Shown: positions 23,128 through 36,197 of the stretch, in pieces
Position numbering within the stretch: the stretch's first letter is position 1
Layout of the letters: each line of letters opens with the position of its first letter
Assembly: GCF_965641715.1 (NCBI RefSeq)
Contig: NZ_OZ282453.1
Strand: one strand, 5' to 3'
DNA: 64,000 nucleotides
Source of the DNA: Escherichia coli
GTDB taxonomy: Bacteria > Pseudomonadota > Gammaproteobacteria > Enterobacterales > Enterobacteriaceae
Made by a program: the position numbers and the translations under genes
The notes under the pieces: generated by a model
What the model saw: only the letters and a program-made list of their open reading frames with translations
Told to the model about the DNA's origin: nothing
Database searches by the model: none

Positions 23128-23751
23128 ATGAACAAGAACTTACTAACAAGGGTAATTATCATTTCGGATGATCTATATTACCTTCAGGGATTAAGTGCAA
23201 AACTAGGTCACCATTATCGTTTTTTTATTGAGTGTTTTTTTTGTTCTCAAAATGCATGCAATAATGACCTAAGTACACTTAGATTTGACAACCGCTTTAC
23301 CAAAAACGTACTTCTTGTCGCAGTGGATGACGTAAGTATACTTGCAAAACTGCCAGATTTGGCCAGGTTTTTAATGATTGTTTCACTAAGAAAGATGAAA
23401 AACAGAAATATCTTCTTTTCACTTTCAGAGCAAACATTCATTAGCCGATATATAAAATTGAATAAACTCATTACTTTGATTAAAAGTACTGATAAAGACC
23501 AGCAAGTCAGGCAGGTGACTCTGACAAGGTATGAGTGGGATATCTATTACTTATATTTTAAGATAGATAACAAAAGAATATTGCACACCCTGCTAAAAAA
23601 GGATGTCAAGTATATTAGTCACTATAAAATATCAGTTTTTAACAAGTTTGAAATTGCTTGTGATAGTGATGGCTTTTACATTTTCAAGGCACTTATACAG
23701 TTAAGGAGATTTACCGGTTTTAAAAACGTCAGATTGTATCAATTGCATTAA
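23128..23751 (+). CDS. Hypothetical protein (207 aa), possible regulator upstream of fimbrial operon
   Basis: AT-rich gene directly upstream of fimbrial major subunit; no motif I can assign. Confidence 0.35.
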   Translation: MNKNLLTRVIIISDDLYYLQGLSAKLGHHYRFFIECFFCSQNACNNDLSTLRFDNRFTKNVLLVAVDDVSILAKLPDLARFLMIVSLRKMKNRNIFFSLSEQTFISRYIKLNKLITLIKSTDKDQQVRQVTLTRYEWDIYYLYFKIDNKRILHTLLKKDVKYISHYKISVFNKFEIACDSDGFYIFKALIQLRRFTGFKNVRLYQLH

Positions 23752-23793
23752 TTAACTCGTTCTATATTAACTCTAAATTTCAAGGATATTAAT

Positions 23794-24354
23794 ATGTTTT
23801 CTACTTTCAAAAAAGCAGCTCTGCTGGCAGCTATTGCATTACCTTTTTCAACTATGGCTGCGCCTACAGTCACTTTTCAGGGTGAAGTAACCGATCAGAC
23901 CTGTTCCGTAAATATCAACGGTCAAACCAATTCAGTAGTATTGATGCCGACCGTAGCCATGGCTGACTTCGGTGCAACTTTAGCTGATGGTCAGAGCGCA
24001 GGCCAGACGCCGTTTACGGTTTCTGTGTCTAACTGCCAGGCTCCAACTGGTGCAGATCAGGCAATCAACACCACCTTCCTGGGCTACGACGTTGACGCTA
24101 GCACGGGTGTTATGGGAAACCGTGATACCAGCAGCGATGCGGCGAAAGGCTTTGGCATTCAGTTAATGGATTCCAGCACTTCTGGTAACCCAGTAACTCT
24201 GGCTGGCGCGACTAACGTACCGGGTCTGACCCTGAAAGTTGGCGATACCGAAGCCAGCTACGACTTCGGTGCGCGTTACTTCGTTATCGATAGCGCTGCT
24301 GCCACTGCCGGTAAAATTACCGCTGTCGCAGAATACACCCTGAGCTACCTCTAA
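23794..24354 (+). CDS. Fimbrial major subunit (chaperone-usher, type-1-like pilin), 186 aa
   Basis: Signal peptide, conserved Cys pair (QTCSV...NCQ), Ala/Thr/Gly-rich, C-terminal donor strand ...AEYTLSYL. Confidence 0.8.
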   Translation: MFSTFKKAALLAAIALPFSTMAAPTVTFQGEVTDQTCSVNINGQTNSVVLMPTVAMADFGATLADGQSAGQTPFTVSVSNCQAPTGADQAINTTFLGYDVDASTGVMGNRDTSSDAAKGFGIQLMDSSTSGNPVTLAGATNVPGLTLKVGDTEASYDFGARYFVIDSAAATAGKITAVAEYTLSYL

Positions 24355-24361
24355 TTAATCT

Positions 24362-24397
24362 ACTGGCTGGCAGTAAATGTCAGCCAGTATTTCTTTG
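24362..24397 (+). terminator. Attenuating hairpin after fimbrial major subunit gene
   Basis: actggctg-gcagtaaatgt-cagccagt followed by atttcttt; typical pilin-gene attenuator position. Confidence 0.5.
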
Positions 24398-24439
24398 CAC
24401 AATTAATAGTGATTTTTCATGGACATGGAAAAGATAAGA

Positions 24440-25141
24440 ATGAACATTTTTGCATATTTACTGGTACTTGTATTTTCCATGAGCATGAGCAGCAGCGCGT
24501 TTGCCAGCGTGGTAATGACCGGAACCCGTATTATTTTCCCTGGTGACGCAAAGGAAAAAACCATCCAGTTGCGAAATACCAGCGATCAGCCCTATATCAT
24601 TAATATCCATGTTGAGGATGAACGTGGTTCTGACAAGAATGTACCGTTTATGCCAACCCCGCAGACATTTCGCATGGAAGCTGCCGCAGGTCAGGCGTTA
24701 CGCCTGCTCTACACTGGTGATAATTTACCGCAGGATCGCGAGTCTGTTTTCTGGTTTAGTTTCAGTCAACTACCTTATCTGAATAAGAACGATAAAAGTC
24801 AGAACCAGCTCATCCTGGCCCTGACTAATCGAGTCAAAATTTTCTATCGTCCCAGCTCAATTGTCGGTAAATCCAGTGACGCGCCAAAAAACCTGACTTA
24901 CCAGGTAAAACAGAACCGCATTGAAGTGACGAATCCCACGGGCTATTACGTCGTGATTCGCGCCGCTGAACTGCTTAATAACGGTAAAAAAGTCCCCCTC
25001 GCGAATTCCGTCATGATTGCTCCTCAAAGCACAATTGAATGGACACTACGCACTGGCATCAGCGTCGCTCCCGGTGCGCAGATTCATTTAGTGACCGTCA
25101 ATGACTATGGCGTAAATGTCACGTCTGAGCATGCCTTATAA
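24440..25141 (+). CDS. Periplasmic fimbrial chaperone (PapD/FimC family)
   Basis: Signal peptide MNIFAYLLVLVFSMSMSSSAFA; chaperone-like N-terminus VVMTGTRIIFPGDAKEKTIQLRN; ORF extends to 24419. Confidence 0.8.
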   Translation: MNIFAYLLVLVFSMSMSSSAFASVVMTGTRIIFPGDAKEKTIQLRNTSDQPYIINIHVEDERGSDKNVPFMPTPQTFRMEAAAGQALRLLYTGDNLPQDRESVFWFSFSQLPYLNKNDKSQNQLILALTNRVKIFYRPSSIVGKSSDAPKNLTYQVKQNRIEVTNPTGYYVVIRAAELLNNGKKVPLANSVMIAPQSTIEWTLRTGISVAPGAQIHLVTVNDYGVNVTSEHAL

Positions 25142-25193
25142 GCTCTTTCCCCTTTTTTGAGCGGTATCCTTTTTCACGCACGAGTATGTCGAG

Positions 25194-27716
25194 ATGAATA
25201 AATCCGTTGTGTCAATTTCTGCGGCAATATTGGTTTTACTCTGCCAGCCGGTTATGGGGAAAGAAATCTCACCCGCTACACCGTCAGATGAAGACAACTA
25301 CACCTTTGACCCGCAACTCTTTCGCGGCAGCAGATTTAGTCAGTCGTCATTGGCAAAACTGACAACTCGTGAGTCTGTTGCACCGGGCAATTATAAAATG
25401 GACATCTACACCAATAATAAGTTGTCAGGCAGTTGGAATGTCACGTTCAAAGAAGCCGCTGATGGTCGCGTTCTGCCCTGCCTGACGCCTGAAGTCGCGG
25501 ACGCGATAGGCCTCAAAACAGGGGAAGATAAGGGTGAAAAAGATCCGGTCTGTACCTTTGCTCAGGAACTCGCTCCCGGCATCACCAGCCAGACACAGTT
25601 GTCACAACTACGCCTTGACTTGTCGGTGCCTCAGAGTCAAATGATTAGTCGCCCTCGCGGCTATGTCCCCCCCAGCGAGCTGGATACCGGAGCATCGCTG
25701 GCGTTCATGAATTATATTGCCAACTATTACAACGTTGCCTATTCAGGGCAGAATGCTCATAGCCAGCGTTCGCTATGGGCATCATTTAATGGTGGCATCA
25801 ACCTTGGTGCCTGGCAATATCGTCAGTTATCCAACATGACCTGGGATAATGACAAAGGGAATCAGTGGAACAATATTCGTAGCTATTTGCAACGCCCGCT
25901 GCCCGCCATAAATAGCCAGTTAATGATGGGGCAGCTTATCACCAGCGGAAGATTTTTCTCTGGACTCAGTTATCACGGCGTTAGTCTCGCGACCGATGAA
26001 CGTATGCTGCCGGACTCCATGCGCGGCTATGCGCCGACTATTCGCGGCGTGGCCGCAACAAACGCCAGAGTCTCGGTAATGCAAAACGGTCATGAAATAT
26101 ATCAGACCACCGTGGCTCCTGGCCCTTTCGAGATAAACGACCTATACCCCACCAGCTACAGCGGCGATCTGGATGTCACCGTTACGGAAGCTAACGGCGC
26201 AGTCAGTCGTTTCAGTGTCCCCTTTTCAGCCGTACCAGAATCGATGCGTCCAGGAACTTCCCGTTATAACGTGGAAGTAGGTAAAACGCAGGATAGTGGT
26301 GATGACTCGATGTTTGGTGACCTTACCTGGCAGCACGGGATGACTAATACGCTGACATTTAACAGTGGTTCGCGTATCGCTGATGGCTACCAGGCGCTGA
26401 TGCTGGGCGGAGTCTATGGCAGTTCGCTGGGGGCATTTGGGGCAAACCTCACTTGGTCCCATGCGCGTGTTCCCGAAAGCGAAGCGCAGAGTGGTTGGAT
26501 GTCGCAATTAACCTGGAGTAAAACTTTCCAGCCTACTTCAACCACCGTCTCCCTGGCAGGTTATCGATACTCTACCAGCGGCTATCGTGATCTGGCTGAT
26601 GTGCTGGGAGAGCGTCATGCTGCCAGCAATAAACAGTCATGGGACTCCAGCCAGTGGCGTCAACAGTCGCGCTTCGATCTTACGTTAAGTCAGAGCCTTG
26701 CGAATTACGGCAACCTGTTTGTGTCAGGTTCAACACAGAACTACCGTGGCGGCAAAAGCCGTGATACACAGCTTCAGTTAGGTTACAGCAATAGCTTTAG
26801 CCATGGCATCAGTATGAACCTTTCCGTCGGACGCCAAAGAATGGGCGGCTATAAAGACAATTCTGATGATATGCAGACGGTAACGTCCCTTTCATTCTCA
26901 TTCCCACTTGGCGGCAATGGACCTCGTGTACCAAGTCTTAGCAACAGCTGGACCCATTCAACTGACGGTAGCTCGCAATTACAAAGCTCGCTAACCGGAA
27001 TGCTTGATGAAGCACAGACCACCAACTACAGCCTGAACGTCATGCGCGATCAACAATATAAGCAGACGACGCTTAGCGGAAACATGCAAAAACGGTTTTC
27101 ACAAACTACCGTCGGATTGAACGCATCGAAGGGCCAGGATTACTGGCAGGCGTCCGGAAACGTACAAGGCGCGATGGCCGTACATGGCGGCGGCGTCACT
27201 TTCGGACCTTATCTGGGTGAAACGTTCGCCCTGGTCGAAGCAAAAGGCGCAGAAGGTGCAAAAGTCTATAACTCCAGTCAGCTGGAAATTAATGACAGTG
27301 GCTATGCGCTTGTTCCGGCAGTAACGCCCTATCGATACAACCGTATATCTCTCGATCCACAAGGAATGGATGGCGATGCCGAGTTGGTCGACAGTGAAAG
27401 ACAGGTAGCACCGGTTGCGGGTGCGGCGGTGAAAGTAATTTTCCGTACCCGTCCTGGTAAAGCGTTGCTGATTAAATCCCGCATGGCAGATGGTTCGGAA
27501 CTGCCAATGGGAGCCGATGTGCTGGATGAGAATAATACAGTCGTCGGTATAGCCGGTCAGGGGGGGCAAATTTACCTCCGCACAGAACAGACAAAAGGCC
27601 ACTTGTCAGTTCGCTGGGGTGAAGGTGCTAACGATAGCTGCCAATTGCCCTTTGATATCAGCGGGAAGGACAGCAATAGCCCTATCATCCGCCTGAATGA
27701 AACCTGTCAGTCTTGA
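25194..27716 (+). CDS. Fimbrial outer-membrane usher (840 aa)
   Basis: Size, signal peptide and beta-barrel-rich composition of the FimD/PapC family; sits between chaperone and adhesin genes. Confidence 0.85.
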   Translation: MNKSVVSISAAILVLLCQPVMGKEISPATPSDEDNYTFDPQLFRGSRFSQSSLAKLTTRESVAPGNYKMDIYTNNKLSGSWNVTFKEAADGRVLPCLTPEVADAIGLKTGEDKGEKDPVCTFAQELAPGITSQTQLSQLRLDLSVPQSQMISRPRGYVPPSELDTGASLAFMNYIANYYNVAYSGQNAHSQRSLWASFNGGINLGAWQYRQLSNMTWDNDKGNQWNNIRSYLQRPLPAINSQLMMGQLITSGRFFSGLSYHGVSLATDERMLPDSMRGYAPTIRGVAATNARVSVMQNGHEIYQTTVAPGPFEINDLYPTSYSGDLDVTVTEANGAVSRFSVPFSAVPESMRPGTSRYNVEVGKTQDSGDDSMFGDLTWQHGMTNTLTFNSGSRIADGYQALMLGGVYGSSLGAFGANLTWSHARVPESEAQSGWMSQLTWSKTFQPTSTTVSLAGYRYSTSGYRDLADVLGERHAASNKQSWDSSQWRQQSRFDLTLSQSLANYGNLFVSGSTQNYRGGKSRDTQLQLGYSNSFSHGISMNLSVGRQRMGGYKDNSDDMQTVTSLSFSFPLGGNGPRVPSLSNSWTHSTDGSSQLQSSLTGMLDEAQTTNYSLNVMRDQQYKQTTLSGNMQKRFSQTTVGLNASKGQDYWQASGNVQGAMAVHGGGVTFGPYLGETFALVEAKGAEGAKVYNSSQLEINDSGYALVPAVTPYRYNRISLDPQGMDGDAELVDSERQVAPVAGAAVKVIFRTRPGKALLIKSRMADGSELPMGADVLDENNTVVGIAGQGGQIYLRTEQTKGHLSVRWGEGANDSCQLPFDISGKDSNSPIIRLNETCQS

Positions 27717-27731
27717 TACAGAGAAAACCCG

Positions 27732-29066
27732 ATGTCTAAATCGACTTTTTTACACATTCTGATTAGCTCCATCATATTGGTGGCACTAATACAATCATCC
27801 GCTTGGGCTAACTGTACAAACACACAGATAGGTCAAACTGAAGATGGTCGGACAGCGCTTATTGAGTTCGGAAAAATTAATATGACCGACACCTATTTTG
27901 CGCCAGCAGGTTCACTCCTCGCGACAACGGTCGTACCTCCCACTAACTACACATCAGGTGGCGCGACAGGAAGCTCCGTACTGTGGGAATGTGATGCAAC
28001 AGATTTGCCAAACATCTATTTTCTGGTCGCTACCAATGGCGACGACCGCGTGGGGGGCTTTTACGATGCAGGCGGGCCTGATGGTCTGAGTGATGTCTAT
28101 GCCACCTGGTTCGCTTTTGTCGGTCTCAAGCAGACCATGGCGGGCGTGACGCTTGGTCGTTACTGGAAGAAAGTGCCCATCACCAGTTATGCCACTCAGG
28201 GAACTAAAATCCAGATTCGCTTACAGGATATCCCTCCTCTTCATGCTGAGCTTTATCGCATCAGTACGCTACCTGATACATCAGCAACAACAAGTTGGTG
28301 CGGTAATAATAATACAGATGGTAGTGGAGTCGGATTCGCAAAACCTTCCGGTACAATCTATAACTGTGTTCAGCCCAATGCCTATATTCAGCTTTCCGGT
28401 ACCAGCGGCATTTTATTTGGTCATGATGAGCCCGGCGAAGATAGTTCTGTTCATTGGGATTTCTGGGGTGCTGATAATGGTTTTGGTTACGGAATGCGTT
28501 CGGCCAATCGACTCTACAACAATGCCACCTGCGTTGCCCGCAGCGCCACGCCGTTAGTATTGCTGCCGACAATTGCAGAAGCACAACTGAATGCGGGCAT
28601 GGAAAGTACCGGTAATTTTAATGTCCGCGTCGAGTGTAGTAACTCGGTTCAATCAGGGATTAGCGATACTCAGACAGCATTAGGAATCCAGGTGTCTGAA
28701 GGTGCATATACAGCAGCGCAAAAACTGGGGATTATCAATAGCAACGGCGGCGTCAGCGCCCTAGTCTCTGATAATTATGACGCAGCAGAGATGGCAAAGG
28801 GCGTTGGGATCTACATTTCTAACAGTGCTCACCCCGATACGGCGATGACGCTGGTTGGTCAACCGGGCATCGCGAAGTTAACCCCCGGAGGAAATGCAGC
28901 GGGGTGGTATCCTGTATTTGAAGGGGCAACATTAGAAGGTGCGACTCACCCCGGATACTCCAGCTATAGTTACTCTTTTATCGCCCGGTTGAAGAAACTG
29001 CCAAATCAGACAGTCAGTGCGGGAAAAGTGCGGGCAACGGCTTATATATTGGTGAAAATGCAATGA
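27732..29066 (+). CDS. Fimbrial tip adhesin-like protein (444 aa, putative lectin domain plus pilin domain)
   Basis: Signal peptide; too large for a simple pilin; operon position after usher. Confidence 0.55.
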   Translation: MSKSTFLHILISSIILVALIQSSAWANCTNTQIGQTEDGRTALIEFGKINMTDTYFAPAGSLLATTVVPPTNYTSGGATGSSVLWECDATDLPNIYFLVATNGDDRVGGFYDAGGPDGLSDVYATWFAFVGLKQTMAGVTLGRYWKKVPITSYATQGTKIQIRLQDIPPLHAELYRISTLPDTSATTSWCGNNNTDGSGVGFAKPSGTIYNCVQPNAYIQLSGTSGILFGHDEPGEDSSVHWDFWGADNGFGYGMRSANRLYNNATCVARSATPLVLLPTIAEAQLNAGMESTGNFNVRVECSNSVQSGISDTQTALGIQVSEGAYTAAQKLGIINSNGGVSALVSDNYDAAEMAKGVGIYISNSAHPDTAMTLVGQPGIAKLTPGGNAAGWYPVFEGATLEGATHPGYSSYSYSFIARLKKLPNQTVSAGKVRATAYILVKMQ

Positions 29067-29752
29067 AATCCGTTTTGCTGCTCTTAACCGTCTTGTTCGT
29101 ACAGTCAGTGGAAGCCGGCATCATGCCGGCTTCTTCACGGATTATTTATCACGATGGCGATCGGGAAAAGACACTGATGCTGGTCAATACCAATGACTAC
29201 CCGGTACTGGTGCAAAGTTGGGTAGATAATGGTGAAGGTTCCCCAGAAGCTGCTTCTCCCCCCTTTGTGGTGCTGCCACCGGTTTTCCGCCTGGCTGCGA
29301 GACGAACCCAGGGGTTGCGGATTATCTATAATCATGACCCACTTCCCCAGGATCGCGAATCTGCATTCTGGTTAAATCTTTATGAAATGCCACCAGAAAC
29401 TCCCCATCAAGATCCCACACATTTAACGCTGGCAATGAATACGCAACTTAAAATCTTTTACAGACCTAAATCTGTAACTATGACACCTGAAGAAGCTATG
29501 CGTAAAATAAGTTGGCATCTGGTTAACAACGGCAGCAGCAGCTATATTGAGCTTAATAACCCAACACCACTGAATATCTCTTTCACCTCCATCAGCATTG
29601 GGGCTACGAAGGTAGAGCAAGAAAGCGATATGATGATAAAACCCTTCAGTCAACGACGGTACTGGTTAGCAAGTAAAAACGTTAGTGGTGTGGTTGCGGC
29701 GACATATCTCGATGATAATGGTGCACAGATAAAGCAACAATTAGCGCAATAA
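29063..29752 (+). CDS. Second periplasmic fimbrial chaperone (PapD-like), 229 aa
   Basis: Signal peptide; SSRIIYHDGDREKTLMLVNTNDYPVLVQSW resembles the chaperone N-terminal domain; 4-bp overlap with adhesin gene. Confidence 0.75.
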   Translation: MKSVLLLLTVLFVQSVEAGIMPASSRIIYHDGDREKTLMLVNTNDYPVLVQSWVDNGEGSPEAASPPFVVLPPVFRLAARRTQGLRIIYNHDPLPQDRESAFWLNLYEMPPETPHQDPTHLTLAMNTQLKIFYRPKSVTMTPEEAMRKISWHLVNNGSSSYIELNNPTPLNISFTSISIGATKVEQESDMMIKPFSQRRYWLASKNVSGVVAATYLDDNGAQIKQQLAQ

Positions 29753-30688: not shown

Positions 30689-31366
30689 TGCTCCTTATGA
30701 GTAAGTAATATTTAAGGGATAATTTAAGTAATTTTTAGATTTCAATAAAAAAATATAAACATTAAAAATCAGCATGAATAATAAACATCAAATCTTATAT
30801 ACATTTAAGTAGTGATGTATCACGTAAAAATATAGTCATCATAGATATTATGCAGTACGCACAAAAAAACAGACTGGATTTGCTTGCTGATCTATAATCT
30901 TTATCTAAATTACTATTGGCGCTTTGGATAATAACATAAGCATATATTACCTCCTAGCAATAATAGACATAACCTCATATCAAGGTGTCACTGGTAAATA
31001 ATCGGATAAAAGACAGTACCGGTCGGCACATAGAGCTTCTTCTATTTCACCAGAAGTGCACAGCAGGGAACTACCAATCACACGGTTAGTGTCATGGGTG
31101 GAGGATGCGTCCCGTTCTTTCCCTATAACGGGGATACGCAGTTTTTATCAGTACATGCAGAAAACCCCCTAATTCACATCACTGCAGAAAGCATTTAATA
31201 GAAATATACATCGTTTAAGAATTTCAATTAAATCAAGATTATTCTTAAAAATCAGATAATTCACATTTGCATTTTTAGGAAATTATACTATAGTGCACTT
31301 AATGTTCTTGCCTTTATTTTCTGAGTAATACTGGATTTGTAATACACAACTAAGGTATAAAATGTA

Positions 31367-32179
31367 ATGATCTACATTATAAATGATGAAGTAAGATTCA
31401 ACTCATCATCTAATAAGTTAACATCACTCCTTACATCAGAGGAAGTGATACTCACTTATCCTGCGGGAAAATGCTTAAAGTTACTTTTAGATAACGCTTA
31501 TAGTGTCGTATCGCATAATCAATTCTTTGAAAAAGTCTGGAGCGATAGCAGTGCCGATGTCGCAACCAACACTTTATATCAAAATATATCGATGATAAGA
31601 CGTTCTTTTCGCGAAATCAGCTCAGCGACGATATTTAATGATGTTATCAGAACGGTGCCCCGTAAAGGCTTCAAAATCAATGAAGAAATCAGCATAACTG
31701 TTCTCGACAATAATCATACTGAGAATGAAAGTGTTGAGAGTGAAGAGAATGGTACCCACACTGAAAATATAAATAAAAATCACATTGCAAAAGGTATATT
31801 TACCACAAAGAATACATTGCTTATAGTTTGTTTTTTTGCGGCATGGGGGATAGTGTATATATCTTCTTATTTTTTCGATATGGCTTTTCAAAGCAAATCC
31901 CACACTATAAAAAAAATAGATGCTTTCTCAAATTATGCTCAACACCCTACTCAGGAAGGATGCAGTTATTTCTATGATAATAAATACTTTAATTCCGTAG
32001 ACATGTTATCACCGATTATTGAAAAATTGCAGAAGATGGAAATTAACTGCAAAATACATCCTTACATTTACATTGCAACAAATGATAGCATGAGCGGATT
32101 TTATGCTTTCACCTGTAGTCAGATGTTAAACTCTGAATCACCAAATAATTGCAACTCTCTCTATTATAAAGCGGAGTAA
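31367..32179 (+). CDS. ToxR/CadC-like membrane-anchored transcriptional regulator (N-terminal winged-helix, one TM helix, Cys-containing periplasmic domain), 270 aa
   Basis: wHTH signature ...SHNQFFEKVWSDSSADVATNTLYQNISMIRRSF...TVPRKGFKI; TM segment LLIVCFFAAWGIVYISSYFF; periplasmic cysteines. Confidence 0.7.
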   Translation: MIYIINDEVRFNSSSNKLTSLLTSEEVILTYPAGKCLKLLLDNAYSVVSHNQFFEKVWSDSSADVATNTLYQNISMIRRSFREISSATIFNDVIRTVPRKGFKINEEISITVLDNNHTENESVESEENGTHTENINKNHIAKGIFTTKNTLLIVCFFAAWGIVYISSYFFDMAFQSKSHTIKKIDAFSNYAQHPTQEGCSYFYDNKYFNSVDMLSPIIEKLQKMEINCKIHPYIYIATNDSMSGFYAFTCSQMLNSESPNNCNSLYYKAE

Positions 32180-32183
32180 TCAT

Positions 32184-32675
32184 ATGACTCAAAGATATTT
32201 TCTGTTTGCGGGAATAATTTTATGTGCTTTTATTGCAGCAATTCTGAGCCATATTGCGTTTCATCATGCCAATGAACCAGCAGAGCAAAACATATCATGT
32301 AATGCCCATGTTATTAATTTCACCGATCATACAAAAATGGATCAATATTTTTCGTTAAATATGATTTCTGAAAATAACACAGGAAACATGTATCTCACGG
32401 GCGCATACACGGTAGATGGAAAAAAGATGGGCTTCATCCGCCGATATGTGAGTTTTACATACAAGAAATTCCGTGATACCGTTTACTTCACCACTGTTAA
32501 AATACAAAAAATACAAAAAGATGATAACATTAGTGATGAAATCCTTGAAAATATCACTTCTGATTTTTTCATAAAAGTAGACACCTCAATTAATTTTTAT
32601 GTTACACGTCAAAATGATTACAACTACGTATTCTCTACAGGCAGGACACCACGCTTCATATGTATTTCCCACTAA
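32184..32675 (+). CDS. ToxS-like small membrane partner (N-terminal TM helix plus periplasmic domain), 163 aa
   Basis: Single N-terminal TM (FLFAGIILCAFIAAILSHIAF), 5 bp downstream of the ToxR-like gene. Confidence 0.45.
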   Translation: MTQRYFLFAGIILCAFIAAILSHIAFHHANEPAEQNISCNAHVINFTDHTKMDQYFSLNMISENNTGNMYLTGAYTVDGKKMGFIRRYVSFTYKKFRDTVYFTTVKIQKIQKDDNISDEILENITSDFFIKVDTSINFYVTRQNDYNYVFSTGRTPRFICISH

Positions 32676-32776: not shown

Positions 32777-34291
32777 TTATCTGTTTACATACCATTGATA
32801 AAACTCTGTCGCTTTCATTGGTTTTGCATATAAGTATCCCTGAACTAATGTCACGTTATTATGAATAAGATATTCCGCCTGGTGAGAGGTACTGACACCT
32901 TCTGCAATCGTTATCAAATTGAGTCGATTACTCAGCTTAATAATAATATCTAAAACAGGCGTTTCGTCTTCCGCTGTAGTGAGCGTGTCTATAAAGCTTT
33001 TATCTATTTTAAGATAATCAACAGACAACTTTTGCAGAAGGCCAAGGGAACAATATCCCGTGCCAAAATCATCAACTGCAAATTCACAGCCATGGATCCT
33101 TAATTCATTTATTTTCTGTAATGCAAGATCAGTATCTTCAACCAGATTGCGTTCGGTAATCTCAAGAACAATGTTAAATTTATCAGATATTGCATTTTTA
33201 ATATGTAAAACATCAGCAACAAAATCAGGATGTGCAAGATGCTCCGCGGCAATATTTATCCCAAGGTGAAACGGCTTTTTCACTTTCCAGCTTTGTACAT
33301 CCTGAATAATCAGTTCAAAGAGATGCTTAGTTAACGGTATAATTAAATTTTCCTCTTCTGCAGCGCGGATAAAAACTACCGGAGATATATTTTTACCATC
33401 TTCGCGTTGCCAACGCATTAACGCCTCAACCCCCAGACACGCTTTGGTTGTCGTGTCACATACTGGTTGATAATGCACAGAAAATTCTCCGGATGACATT
33501 CCTTTCTTAATTTCTTCTGCCAGGGACATTTTCCGAGATATCCAGCGCTGCCATAAGAAGTACAGGATAAAAGAAAGAAGAATAGATAATGGAAGAATGT
33601 AAAATACATTACTAATGACATAGGGATATAATGAAATCATCGGCGTAGTAACTGTAAGACTAGCCTGACTGATCGCAGAATTAAAATCTTTTTTTAACAT
33701 ATATAACTTGTCATTATTATTTACACCACTAATAATTGCAGGCCCTTCAGTAAAGCTAAGAGAAAATGAATCATCATTCTCATCATCAAGAACATCCATC
33801 AGATCATAGATATATCGTGACTCTACAATACTAAAAGCTGTCATATCATTCCCTATTGGCATAAGGAACACTATGGCTGTTTTACCTGGTACAAAACTTG
33901 TACCGCTAATTGATACTATGCGTGATTCTTTATTTTTATTGTGAAAGCTCGTACCGTAAACATCGTTAACATTCATTTTTTTGAAACCGCTAACTGAAGA
34001 ACATATTTGGAAATTATTTTCTATAAGACCCGTTGTTCGAACATAGGGGGTCAATGCTCCGTTAGCAATCAATTGTTCCAGGATATCTTTGCAGGGTTTC
34101 ATCACCAGAATAGAAGTAAGCTTTGTCGTATGTTTGACAATTTGCGTAACATTATCAAGCTGTTTTAACAGAATACCGGCGGTAATTGTCGTATCTCTAT
34201 TCATTTGAAATATTGACATAGCAAACGATAGTAACACCCCCAGAATGCCTGGTATTATAATGAGTACAAACATTTTTTTGTTGAATACCAT
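32777..34291 (-). CDS. Membrane-anchored sensor c-di-GMP phosphodiesterase (periplasmic sensor region, TM helix, EAL domain)
   Basis: EAL motif EALMRWQ in C-terminal domain; N-terminal TM plus periplasmic region; ORF extends to 34387, start chosen at MVFNKKMFVLIII. May correspond to the EHEC vmpA-type PDE, unverified. Confidence 0.75.
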   Translation of the reverse strand: MVFNKKMFVLIIIPGILGVLLSFAMSIFQMNRDTTITAGILLKQLDNVTQIVKHTTKLTSILVMKPCKDILEQLIANGALTPYVRTTGLIENNFQICSSVSGFKKMNVNDVYGTSFHNKNKESRIVSISGTSFVPGKTAIVFLMPIGNDMTAFSIVESRYIYDLMDVLDDENDDSFSLSFTEGPAIISGVNNNDKLYMLKKDFNSAISQASLTVTTPMISLYPYVISNVFYILPLSILLSFILYFLWQRWISRKMSLAEEIKKGMSSGEFSVHYQPVCDTTTKACLGVEALMRWQREDGKNISPVVFIRAAEEENLIIPLTKHLFELIIQDVQSWKVKKPFHLGINIAAEHLAHPDFVADVLHIKNAISDKFNIVLEITERNLVEDTDLALQKINELRIHGCEFAVDDFGTGYCSLGLLQKLSVDYLKIDKSFIDTLTTAEDETPVLDIIIKLSNRLNLITIAEGVSTSHQAEYLIHNNVTLVQGYLYAKPMKATEFYQWYVNR

Positions 34292-34484
34292 ACATGTTTC
34301 CCCACGCATCAGGGTGATGCAACCTAAGAAATTATAGTACAATTGCCAGTAAAAGCGGGTGATAGCAGACTGATCAATGATAAGCATTTAAGATCATATA
34401 GTACTATGATATTTCTGAAAATTGTTACGCATGTCTGCGAATAGCTATTTAGCGCTTACCAAAATCACCCGCTAAAATGCCGCT

Positions 34485-35843
34485 TTATGGTGACTCACAA
34501 AAATTCACCACATCCCTCACAACCACCTTATTACGCCCGGTCTCTTTCGCCTCGTATAGTGCGTTATCAGCCAGTCGATAGATCTCATTCGGGTTTAACG
34601 CATTTTCCTGAGTCACAACAGCGCCAATACTAATCGTCACTTTTTGTGGTATGGCGTATTCAGGATTATCACCAGTTAAACGCTCAACATTTTCCCGAAT
34701 CCTTTCCGCTAAAGCTTTCGCACGTTCAGTATCGATGTCCGTCAGCAAGACGCCAAACTCTTCGCCGCCGACGCGCGCAAAAAGGTCATCTGGCCGTATG
34801 CTTTTCCCAATGATATTCACCACTGTTTTTATCACCTGATCGCCAATCGGATGCCCCCAGGTGTCGTTGACTTTTTTGAAGTGGTCGATATCCATAATCA
34901 TGACGCAATAAGGCGTTTTTTTGGCCGATGCTGATTGAACCGTCAGTTCATTAAAAAAATAATTTCTGTTAAATATATTGGTTAAGGGATCGCGATGTGC
35001 AATGTCCTTTGTTACTCGTAGCGCACTGAATATATGGCACATAAATATTACCATAACGGTTAACTTACTGACTACTTCAATAGTGCGACTAATATACCAA
35101 ATGGACACGCTATACCTGCTCATAAATAAAAGAGAGACATTGTACAGTACGGCACAAAAAGCAATCACTGTCACTCCATTCCAGATATCATAGCGTAAAC
35201 CATTAAAGTATAGATTAACCGAAAGCAAGGTTAACCACATGAAAATCATTATGGTAACATATGAAGCTTTCCAAACCACTTGACCATTTTCATTGGTTAA
35301 CTCGGCAATGTGTAAATCGTAGCTCTCATAATGGCTAGAAAGTATGTGAGCAACTATCGGCCCCCCAAGAACAAAAAACAAACTTATGCACAAAGTCATT
35401 TTTTTGGAAAATAAATTGCGCTGTTTTGTGTTTTCACTAACTTTATTCACCAATGCCAGAAATATTAATATGCACAAACTCATCTGACGAAACAAATAAT
35501 AAATTGCAATGTCATTTTGAACAACACTGCTTGTCAAACGCCCCTCAATCATTTGCTGAATGATAATGACGGTTTTAACAAAGTAAATCAAACAACTCAG
35601 AAAAGCCAAACTAAGTATACAGTTTGAAAATTGCCTACGGTCATAAATGAAATACAACTGCATAAAAATAAATGCAACAGTATCGATAAAAAATAAAGCA
35701 ATCATTACCATCAGATAGGTTGATCGTGGAACAACTTCCTCAACGCCTGGCTGATTAAACCAACTATTCACCAAAACCAAAGCAAGCCCAAACAATAAGC
35801 TCACTAAGACAGTACTACTAATTCTCAAATAGTCTTTTTCCAT
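34485..35843 (-). CDS. dgcT: Diguanylate cyclase DgcT/YcdT (membrane domain plus GGDEF)
   Basis: Starts MEKDYLRISSTVLVS (ORF extends upstream to 35966); GGEEF active site RVGGEEFGVLL; divergent from pgaA as in the known locus. Confidence 0.85.
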   Translation of the reverse strand: MEKDYLRISSTVLVSLLFGLALVLVNSWFNQPGVEEVVPRSTYLMVMIALFFIDTVAFIFMQLYFIYDRRQFSNCILSLAFLSCLIYFVKTVIIIQQMIEGRLTSSVVQNDIAIYYLFRQMSLCILIFLALVNKVSENTKQRNLFSKKMTLCISLFFVLGGPIVAHILSSHYESYDLHIAELTNENGQVVWKASYVTIMIFMWLTLLSVNLYFNGLRYDIWNGVTVIAFCAVLYNVSLLFMSRYSVSIWYISRTIEVVSKLTVMVIFMCHIFSALRVTKDIAHRDPLTNIFNRNYFFNELTVQSASAKKTPYCVMIMDIDHFKKVNDTWGHPIGDQVIKTVVNIIGKSIRPDDLFARVGGEEFGVLLTDIDTERAKALAERIRENVERLTGDNPEYAIPQKVTISIGAVVTQENALNPNEIYRLADNALYEAKETGRNKVVVRDVVNFCESP

Positions 35844-36197
35844 AAAGCTACACCAACCTGTAGGTTGTAGATCCCTTTCTATTATTAATAGATATAAGAA
35901 CTCTACAGTTGTCAATATGAAAACCCACTCACAAACAATACCGATGATGATAGTTGCAGACCGCAATTATTATTACCTTAGTGCTTTATACATTCTTTGC
36001 GACAAGACAGGCTTGTAAATATTTATAAATGGTTATAAGGAAATCCTTATAAAACATTCATTCATAGATATATTAGGAATAACAATTGAATCCGTGAGTA
36101 CAGTAACGCTGCATTTCATCAGGACTTTCGAAAAATCCGAAATCATGCATCGGAATTTACTGATTTAATTATTTTACTCCTAATTTATTTTGAAAAA

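Follow-up and report, generated by a model that had tools for sequence, protein, structure and literature searches.

The grvA–fidL operon of an OI-47-type genomic island in Escherichia coli

Two closely spaced open reading frames (ORFs) at positions 31367–32675 of a 64-kb stretch of Escherichia coli DNA (hereafter the window) were described in an earlier note as a ToxR/ToxS-like pair of membrane-bound regulator and partner, and they raise the question of which system this is, what it may respond to and which genes it may control.

Identity of the gene pair and its island

Judged by sequence comparison, the pair is the already described GrvA–FidL of OI-47 of the E. coli O157:H7 type and is not new. 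The first ORF is grvA (31367..32179, plus strand, stop included), which has an ATG start and encodes a ToxR-family transmembrane transcription regulator of 270 amino acids; the second (32184..32675, plus strand, stop included), also with an ATG start, is a fidL-like gene of the YqeJ family and encodes a bitopic partner of 163 amino acids. GrvA is identical at 269 of 270 residues to WP_000639305.1 of O157:H7 (strains 493/89 and EDL933), the sole change being T118N in a disordered linker, and FidL is identical at 163/163 residues to the O157:H7 protein at the equivalent place in OI-47; there is thus one amino acid change in 433 residues, with 13 nucleotide differences over 2.1 kb of DNA. The window is not of identical lineage to sequenced O157:H7, with 98.45% DNA identity across 41.8 kb. 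Strains 493/89 and EDL933 have the order ketosynthase/ACP/FabZ/SDR/AcpS cluster, tpsB, tpsA, a 207-amino-acid ORF and a five-gene chaperone-usher operon, followed by an SDR gene, a wHTH protein, a 'hypothetical protein', an EAL protein, dgcT and pgaABCD; the window shares this gene order and the insertion site beside dgcT-pgaABCD. We assign the locus to GrvA–FidL of OI-47 because the proteins are near-identical and the gene order matches, and this recognition closes the question posed by the earlier note.

OI-47 comprises z1528–z1556 and codes for adhesin and fatty-acid-synthesis genes, VmpA/PdeT and GrvA (PMC8565820, PMC5567499, PMC4076661). GrvA is z1531/ECs1274, a ToxR-family regulator of OI-47 (PMC10877973, PMC9214523), and FidL is ECs1273, termed a 'FidL lipocalin' (PMC9214523); the mapping of z1531 to the window protein was made from these literature descriptions and not from a tag in sequence records. 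GrvA is reviewed as approximately 30% identical to Salmonella MarT (PMC10877973), and the 29% identity that we found between the 270-residue GrvA and a Salmonella MarT-like protein agrees with this value.

Of 5426 complete E. coli genomes, 410 carry the segment at ≥ 90% identity, with O157:H7, O55:H7, O145:H28, O169:H41 and untyped strains among the carriers. Both ORFs are real genes and not chance reading frames, given this distribution, the presence of homologous pairs in many Enterobacteriaceae genera and their confident folds. The GC content of both genes is 34% compared with 48% for the window, within a low-GC stretch from approximately 30 to 36 kb, and the pair is therefore likely to be of foreign origin.

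According to published reviews, activation of grvA by RcsB is bicarbonate-sensitive and GrvA lowers gadE expression in exponential phase, indirectly through gadW; with the lower gadE level, ler and the LEE are de-repressed, adherence to Caco-2 cells rises and GAD acid resistance falls (PMC10877973, PMC8565820, PMC6393859). Phenotypes of both grvA deletion and overexpression are published (PMC10877973). Deletion of the whole of OI-47 in TUV93-0 raised type III secretion (PMC3378721); this effect is opposite in sign to that of the grvA deletion, which argues that other island genes also feed in. Through Rcs, GrvA ties the sensing of the envelope and of bicarbonate to two traits decisive for EHEC infection: attaching-effacing adherence and acid resistance.

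Domain architecture of GrvA and FidL

A winged-helix DNA-binding domain had been claimed for the first ORF, and a profile match bears this out: Trans_reg_C (Pfam), the sole Pfam domain in the protein, spans GrvA residues 25–103 (E 3.7e-11). The N-terminal domain is of the OmpR/PhoB-type winged helix-turn-helix (wHTH) class without a receiver domain, and occupies residues 1–113 (31367..31705, plus strand) in the AF2 model. When GrvA was compared with all PDB sequences, the Vibrio cholerae ToxR DNA-binding domain ranked first (E 9.4e-7), followed by a PhoB-family regulator and CadC; for the wHTH domain the top matches by both sequence and structure were V. cholerae ToxR, then CadC and TcpP, the DNA-binding domain of E. 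coli CadC (5ju7) being a structural match. NCBIfam returned only sub-threshold wHTH matches for GrvA.

The AF2 model of GrvA was built on a 56-sequence alignment and has a mean pLDDT of 83.5; it has a confident wHTH domain (residues 1–113), a long helix at 148–177 and a beta2-alpha-beta3 domain at 190–268, and the linker alone falls below 50. This linker (residues 114–147; 31706..31807, plus strand) is acidic, Asn-rich and predicted to be disordered on the basis of pLDDT (< 50 over residues 119–145) and low conservation. It is followed by a single transmembrane (TM) helix at residues 148–177 (31808..31897, plus strand) with a hydrophobic core at 150–170, supported by both AF2 and Kyte–Doolittle analysis, in which 19-residue windows above 1.6 start at residues 149–152 only; the single TM helix proposed in the earlier note was thus recovered. 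The remaining residues, 178–270 (31898..32176, plus strand), contain the beta2-alpha-beta3 domain with Cys199, Cys228, Cys250 and Cys262, all four of which are invariant in 56/56 homologues. We infer that this domain is periplasmic, as had been proposed, from the cytoplasmic location of the DNA-binding domain and from the four invariant cysteines after the helix, which fit an oxidizing periplasmic environment. At approximately 90 residues, the periplasmic part is modelled as a small alpha/beta domain folded like those of VtrA and ToxR. The PDB yielded no match to this domain in sequence or profile searches; Kinch et al. (2022) modelled GrvA residues 189–270 as VtrA-like (PMC9214523).

FidL is a small bitopic protein, as had been suggested, with an N-terminal signal-anchor TM helix at residues 2–29 (32187..32270, plus strand) by Kyte–Doolittle analysis and AF2. 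The hydropathy peak is 2.51 at residues 6–24, within the sole hydrophobic segment of the protein (residues ~6–26); a single positive charge (R4) precedes the helix and the net charge behind it is negative. In the AF2 model (mean pLDDT 94.7) the helix is followed by an eight-stranded barrel and one short helix, and residues 30–163 (32271..32672, plus strand) are predicted to form a periplasmic lipocalin-like barrel carrying a Cys39/Cys160 pair. Cys39 is invariant and Cys160 is at least 90% conserved in a 67-sequence alignment; they are located in strands E37–47 and E155–162, the first and last strands of the modelled barrel, and are a putative disulfide pair.

The structures closest to the FidL model are VtrC and ToxS at 4–8% sequence identity, so that the description of the second ORF as ToxS-like was correct at the level of the fold. 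Searches of the PDB with the FidL sequence and profile gave no match, and the proposed link to VtrC and ToxS draws on predicted fold and gene order rather than on sequence similarity. An exhaustive phmmer search with FidL recovered 78 representative relatives of ~160 amino acids. The representative of its 99%-identical cluster carries the NCBI name 'FidL' with precomputed matches to PF27292.1 (YqeJ_C) and PF15941.12 (FidL_like), and RefSeq labels some copies 'FidL-like' or 'YqeJ family protein'. Our copy of Pfam-A, which does not include PF27292, gave no match for FidL, including with its FidL_like model, and in a Pfam search with the 67-sequence alignment only 2–4 members touched FidL_like; this null result reflects the library copy, since PF27292 and PF15941 are both listed among the precomputed matches. 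NCBIfam gave noise only for FidL.

Operon layout, the grvA promoter and genomic context

Between the grvA stop codon and the fidL ATG there is a gap of 4 nt (32180–32183), in agreement with the second ORF having been placed 5 bp downstream, its first base being the fifth after the stop codon. A GGAG Shine–Dalgarno sequence for fidL, read from the sequence at 32173..32176 (plus strand), lies 7 nt upstream of the ATG, among the final codons of grvA, and this position suggests translational coupling of the two genes. No terminator-like site was predicted between grvA and fidL, nor was a terminator predicted after fidL, where the convergent intergenic region shows no folding beyond that of shuffled sequences.

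Upstream of grvA the best sigma-70-like promoter candidate is TTCACA, an 18-nt spacer and TATACT (31260..31289, plus strand; 10/12 consensus positions), a consensus match in a region where the count of such sites does not exceed the shuffled expectation. A tandem direct repeat resembling an RcsB box (31234..31265, plus strand) abuts and overlaps the −35 hexamer: the proximal copy, TCAGATAATTC (31252–31262, plus strand), is perfect and overlaps the predicted hexamer, and the distal copy, CAAGATTATTCTTA (31234–31247, plus strand), is degenerate. Upstream of the grvA homologues in two relatives (L003 and L005), ATTCAGATAATTC occurs twice at 18-bp spacing; the repeat is conserved in these relatives even though the rest of the intergenic regions does not align. 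Within the 64-kb window the proximal copy is the only exact occurrence, and other window promoters contain only matches with two mismatches, at chance frequency.

The consensus of the RcsB box, which we take to be TNRGAN4TCYNA, is matched with no mismatch by the distal copies of both relatives (that in Pseudocitrobacter was confirmed by search) and with one mismatch by the proximal copies in the relatives and by both copies in the window; no perfect match is present in the 64-kb window. The grvA promoter also matches the RcsAB-box consensus TAAGAATATTCCTA with ≤ 3 mismatches, although the window total of eight such matches, against 5.3 expected, is at chance level. The case for this site is therefore based on its conservation across genera, as the motif counts are not above chance. 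RcsB is reviewed as a direct activator of grvA (PMC8565820, PMC6393859), and by inference from sequence the repeat may be assigned to RcsB; it would be the RcsB site of the published work or else one through which GrvA regulates itself, and it offers a concrete target for mutation.

The GrvA–FidL-type pair is conserved as a unit across the Enterobacteriaceae. In each of the nine homologous loci that reach past the regulator (L003, L005–L007, L009 and L011–L014), the next gene after that for the wHTH protein is a YqeJ_C (PF27292) gene, and the two ORFs overlap by 4–8 nt in most sampled relatives (they are 10 nt apart in L013). By comparison with Pseudocitrobacter, island genes are 73–88% identical, against 50.5% for GrvA and 48.8% for FidL. 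Identity by domain is 75% for the wHTH, 15% for the linker, 20% for the TM segment, 45% for the periplasmic domain and 56% for the barrel. On these figures the cassette evolves much faster than its surroundings, matching the literature label 'fast-evolving', and GrvA–FidL belongs to a fast-evolving family of gut-signal receptors.

The earlier note had also proposed that the pair controls neighbouring adhesion genes. A synteny survey covered nine distinct genomic contexts of GrvA/YqeI-family cassettes, and in five of them a pilus operon is no more than 9 kb away: the OI-type context of E. coli and Pseudocitrobacter; L005, with an ECP/Mat pilus operon directly upstream; Citrobacter L007 and L014, which share a chaperone-usher operon with the same five-gene layout and an usher that is 41% identical; L011; and L012. 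In Kosakonia the cassette is divergent from, and abuts, a tpsB-acpS-SDR-fabZ-ACP-GCV_T-KS cluster in which the KS is 80% identical. Pseudocitrobacter lacks the linkage to the EAL gene pdeT, but genes for c-di-GMP enzymes are near the cassette in four contexts. In Yokenella ~6 kb separate the cassette from homologues of acid-fitness-island genes, namely of gadE (48% identity, E 8e-60) and hdeA, together with an AraC regulator of the GadW/GadX type; given the action of GrvA through GadW and GadE this linkage is suggestive, although a single case. The survey lends some support to control of neighbouring genes, and falls short of proof. We also considered whether the 207-amino-acid protein travels with the cassette and rejected this, since the proteins concerned, in several loci, are unrelated except for the true Pseudocitrobacter orthologue; the protein has no match in Pfam or NCBIfam, and its match to K-12 YqeH is not significant (E 0.35).

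Proposed mechanism, rival readings and related systems

In VtrA/VtrC the periplasmic edge strand of the regulator completes the open barrel of its partner and bile salts bind inside the barrel, and ToxS and TcpH shield ToxR and TcpP respectively from regulated proteolysis (PMC9214523, PMC10269533). Kinch et al. (2022) classed GrvA/FidL with VtrA/VtrC and ToxR/ToxS as a 'co-component signal transduction system', with a confident AlphaFold complex for GrvA–FidL and experimental complexes for YqeI/YqeJ and PsaE/PsaF (PMC9214523); a 2023 table of transmembrane regulators gives GrvA without a listed partner (PMC10269533). On the pattern of VtrA/VtrC and ToxR/ToxS, and in line with the published AlphaFold model of the complex, the open barrel of FidL would be completed by the edge strand at the C-terminal end of GrvA's periplasmic domain, giving an obligate heterodimer. 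FidL would bind a small hydrophobic cue in the gut, most obviously a bile salt or a fatty acid. The bound ligand, protection from proteolysis or both may alter the oligomerization of GrvA, allowing its membrane-tethered wHTH domains to bind direct repeats at target promoters. Taken as a whole, the locus is best explained as the grvA–fidL operon of an OI-47-type genomic island working in this way, a reading to which we assign a probability of roughly 0.85.

A rival reading denies FidL a ligand-sensing role and makes it a chaperone or protease shield that stabilizes GrvA, the real input being RcsB and bicarbonate acting on the grvA promoter. The only documented input is the control of grvA transcription by RcsB and bicarbonate (PMC8565820, PMC6393859, PMC10877973); further, the RcsB-box-like repeat of the promoter has been kept in different genera, and other partners of the family are known to keep their regulators from being proteolysed (PMC10269533). 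This reading is possible, if rather unlikely: in VtrC and ToxS, the two structures closest to FidL, the ligand (a bile salt) is bound by the lipocalin-like barrel, and divergence in the periplasmic parts is much faster than in the wHTH domain or in adjacent genes, as would be produced by changing sensory specificity. The roles of ligand sensor and shield are not mutually exclusive. That the pair is a decaying and non-functional remnant on a horizontally acquired island has a negligible probability, even though its GC content of 34% lies within a foreign island and the paralogous K-12 yqeIJ sits in the degraded ETT2 island (PMC9214523): both frames are intact with a single residue change against 13 nucleotide differences from O157:H7, the functional residues are invariant across genera, and the published grvA phenotypes (PMC10877973), together with this pattern of conservation, effectively refute it.

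A further reading concerns the targets, and would have GrvA–FidL as mainly a local regulator with the adjacent adhesin module of the island as its direct and ancestral target, namely the chaperone-usher fimbrial operon (23128–29752) and perhaps tpsBA and the ACP/ketosynthase lipid cluster, the LEE and GAD effects being secondary cross-talk. Parallels exist in the action of PsaE/PsaF on psaA, MyfE/MyfF on myf and MarT on misL (PMC10269533, PMC9214523), and the pilus operons found close to the cassette in five of nine contexts, as well as its divergent arrangement with the tpsB-lipid cluster (the other half of OI-47) in Kosakonia, point in the same direction. As a rough background estimate, approximately 5–7% of the positions in an enterobacterial genome are no more than 9 kb from a pilus operon, and the contexts are few and not all independent; one of them (L006) has no adhesin genes. 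The fimbrial operon also starts with its own small gene (23128–23751), which could be its regulator, the conserved repeat of the grvA promoter is at no other promoter in the window and the reviews list LEE and GAD outputs only (PMC10877973). We consider the local reading unlikely on balance, and hold as more doubtful still the proposal that GrvA–FidL serves first of all as a resident switch for the surface module of OI-47 (chaperone-usher fimbriae, TpsAB and the ACP/ketosynthase lipid cluster) with FidL sensing a lipid. If it were true, this lipid might even be the product of the neighbouring lipid cluster, and the effects on LEE and GAD would have arisen later as cross-talk; the recurrent linkage of the cassette to pilus genes, c-di-GMP enzymes and, in Yokenella, gadE, hdeA and a gadW-like gene would then represent an old circuit setting adhesion against acid resistance.

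The pair may be compared with several known systems. The architecture had been likened to that of ToxRS or CadC; the ToxR/ToxS likeness holds by wHTH domain and fold, whereas the CadC sensor and a LysP partner are absent. CadC has a much larger, multi-domain periplasmic pH sensor and works with the permease LysP. A CadC-type pH/lysine sensor was rejected for GrvA: its periplasmic part forms one small domain, its score with the CadC model of NCBIfam is 19.5 bits where the cut-off is 400, and its partner is predicted to be lipocalin-like and not a permease. The published structural comparison extends only to the N-terminal periplasmic subdomain of CadC (residues 194–316 of 3lya; PMC9214523), and the table of transmembrane regulators gives CadC for Escherichia spp. 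with K-12 not named (PMC10269533).

YqeI/YqeJ (K-12 and APEC, ETT2) and MarT/FidL (Salmonella SPI-3) are paralogous cassettes of equal length and domain order that share with GrvA/FidL the four periplasmic cysteines of the regulator and the cysteine pair of the partner, and the partners belong to one Pfam family (YqeJ_C). GrvA is 32% identical to K-12 YqeI and FidL is 21% identical to K-12 YqeJ (E 3e-17); the statement that such systems are uncommon in E. coli was therefore too strong, K-12 itself having a paralogous pair. The grvA and fidL ORFs are 4 nt apart, in contrast to the overlapping ORFs of most relatives, and the two paralogous cassettes differ from it in island and in reported output: ETT2, serum resistance and flagella for YqeI, and misL for MarT.

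The resemblance to VtrA/VtrC, the bile-salt receptor of Vibrio parahaemolyticus (PDB 5kev/5kew), is more distant, as there is 8% sequence identity with no sequence-level relationship detectable, VtrA has no periplasmic cysteines (Kinch et al., PMC9214523) and the output is vtrB and T3SS2; bile-salt binding has been shown for VtrC, whereas FidL is likened to VtrC by predicted fold and gene order. For Vibrio ToxR/ToxS, identity is 24–26% in the wHTH domain and not detectable elsewhere, the regulons differ and the GrvA model does not have the C-terminal helix of the ToxR periplasmic domain (PMC9214523). Across these comparisons GrvA–FidL resembles ToxRS, VtrAC and YqeIJ rather than CadC.

Lineage and spread of the island

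Over 41.8 kb (positions 11101-52902) the window is only 98.45% identical to the O157:H7 locus (L001), in an alignment with 16 gap openings, and no complete genome of the collection searched matched the 1.8-kb grvA-fidL segment at > 99.4% identity. On both comparisons, the source of the window is an E. coli lineage that is distinct from the sequenced O157:H7 strains and has an island of the OI-47 type. The island was found in 410 genomes of several serotypes (in one case on a record designated as a plasmid), and its spread exceeds the 'O157/O55/O145:H28 only' to which reviews have confined OI-47.

Neighbours of the GrvA/FidL cassette

Downstream of fidL and convergent with it is a gene for a CSS-motif EAL phosphodiesterase (32777-34387, minus strand), named pdeT in some RefSeq genomes and presumably encoding what publications on OI-47 call VmpA. 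This is followed by the core-genome diguanylate cyclase gene dgcT (34485-35966, minus strand), with pgaABCD beyond. The Pseudocitrobacter island has no copy of the EAL gene, whose linkage to grvA-fidL is therefore not conserved.

Parts of OI-47 recur beside cassettes of this family in other genera, as seen when window positions 10375-30688 were compared with loci from Pseudocitrobacter (L003), Citrobacter (L007 and L014) and Kosakonia (L009). The five-gene chaperone-usher operon lies near the cassette in Pseudocitrobacter, with 73-88% identity, and in Citrobacter, where the usher is 41% identical; the Kosakonia cassette neighbours the tpsB-acpS-SDR-fabZ-ACP-GCV_T-ketosynthase cluster, the ketosynthase being 80% identical. 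Across these four loci identity to the window pair is only 27-51% for GrvA and only 23-49% for FidL; the two proteins have thus evolved far more quickly than the genes around them.

The first gene of the fimbrial operon, a 207-amino-acid ORF on the plus strand (23128-23751), lies in a stretch of 33-35% GC and is kept in Pseudocitrobacter with 56% identity. It had no match in Pfam or NCBIfam and no significant similarity to K-12 YqeH. By eye, its N-terminus resembles small GerE/LuxR-type regulators adjoining two other cassettes (L011 and L013), and the ORF may therefore encode the operon's own regulator.

Upstream of grvA homologues, three lineages retain a tandem direct repeat, two copies of ATTCAGATAATTC at 18-bp spacing (window 31234-31265; L003 9861-9896; L005 8082-8112), in intergenic regions that cannot be aligned elsewhere. 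Of the two window copies, only the proximal one is perfect, and it overlaps the predicted -35 hexamer; the distal one is degenerate. The repeat is RcsB-box-like and probably the published RcsB site, although it could possibly be a site of GrvA autoregulation instead.

A GrvA variant and Pfam matches of FidL

The deposited GrvA variant of E. coli DEC4E (P0087) has a scrambled segment at columns ~140-170 of alignment A4, coinciding exactly with the last part of the linker and the TM helix; the flanks on both sides are identical. The pattern suggests two compensating frameshifts, which could have arisen from sequencing error or could mark a natural variant without a membrane anchor.

FidL (32184-32672) gave no match at all in a scan of a Pfam-A copy that included FidL_like (PF15941.10) and lacked YqeJ_C (PF27292). 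Precomputed annotations of a 99%-identical protein give both families, and an empty scan of that copy does not therefore signify absence in FidL/YqeJ proteins.

A related cassette in Yokenella

In Yokenella regensburgei (L013 9001-18765) the GrvA/YqeI-family cassette adjoins a DosC-like GGDEF gene and a CSS-EAL gene. Some 6 kb away are a homologue of gadE (48% identity to K-12 GadE), hdeA and a GadW/GadX-like AraC regulator, and putA is ~5 kb from the cassette. These surroundings echo both the known GadW-GadE pathway of GrvA and, in E. coli, the chromosomal setting of OI-47 between put and dgcT.
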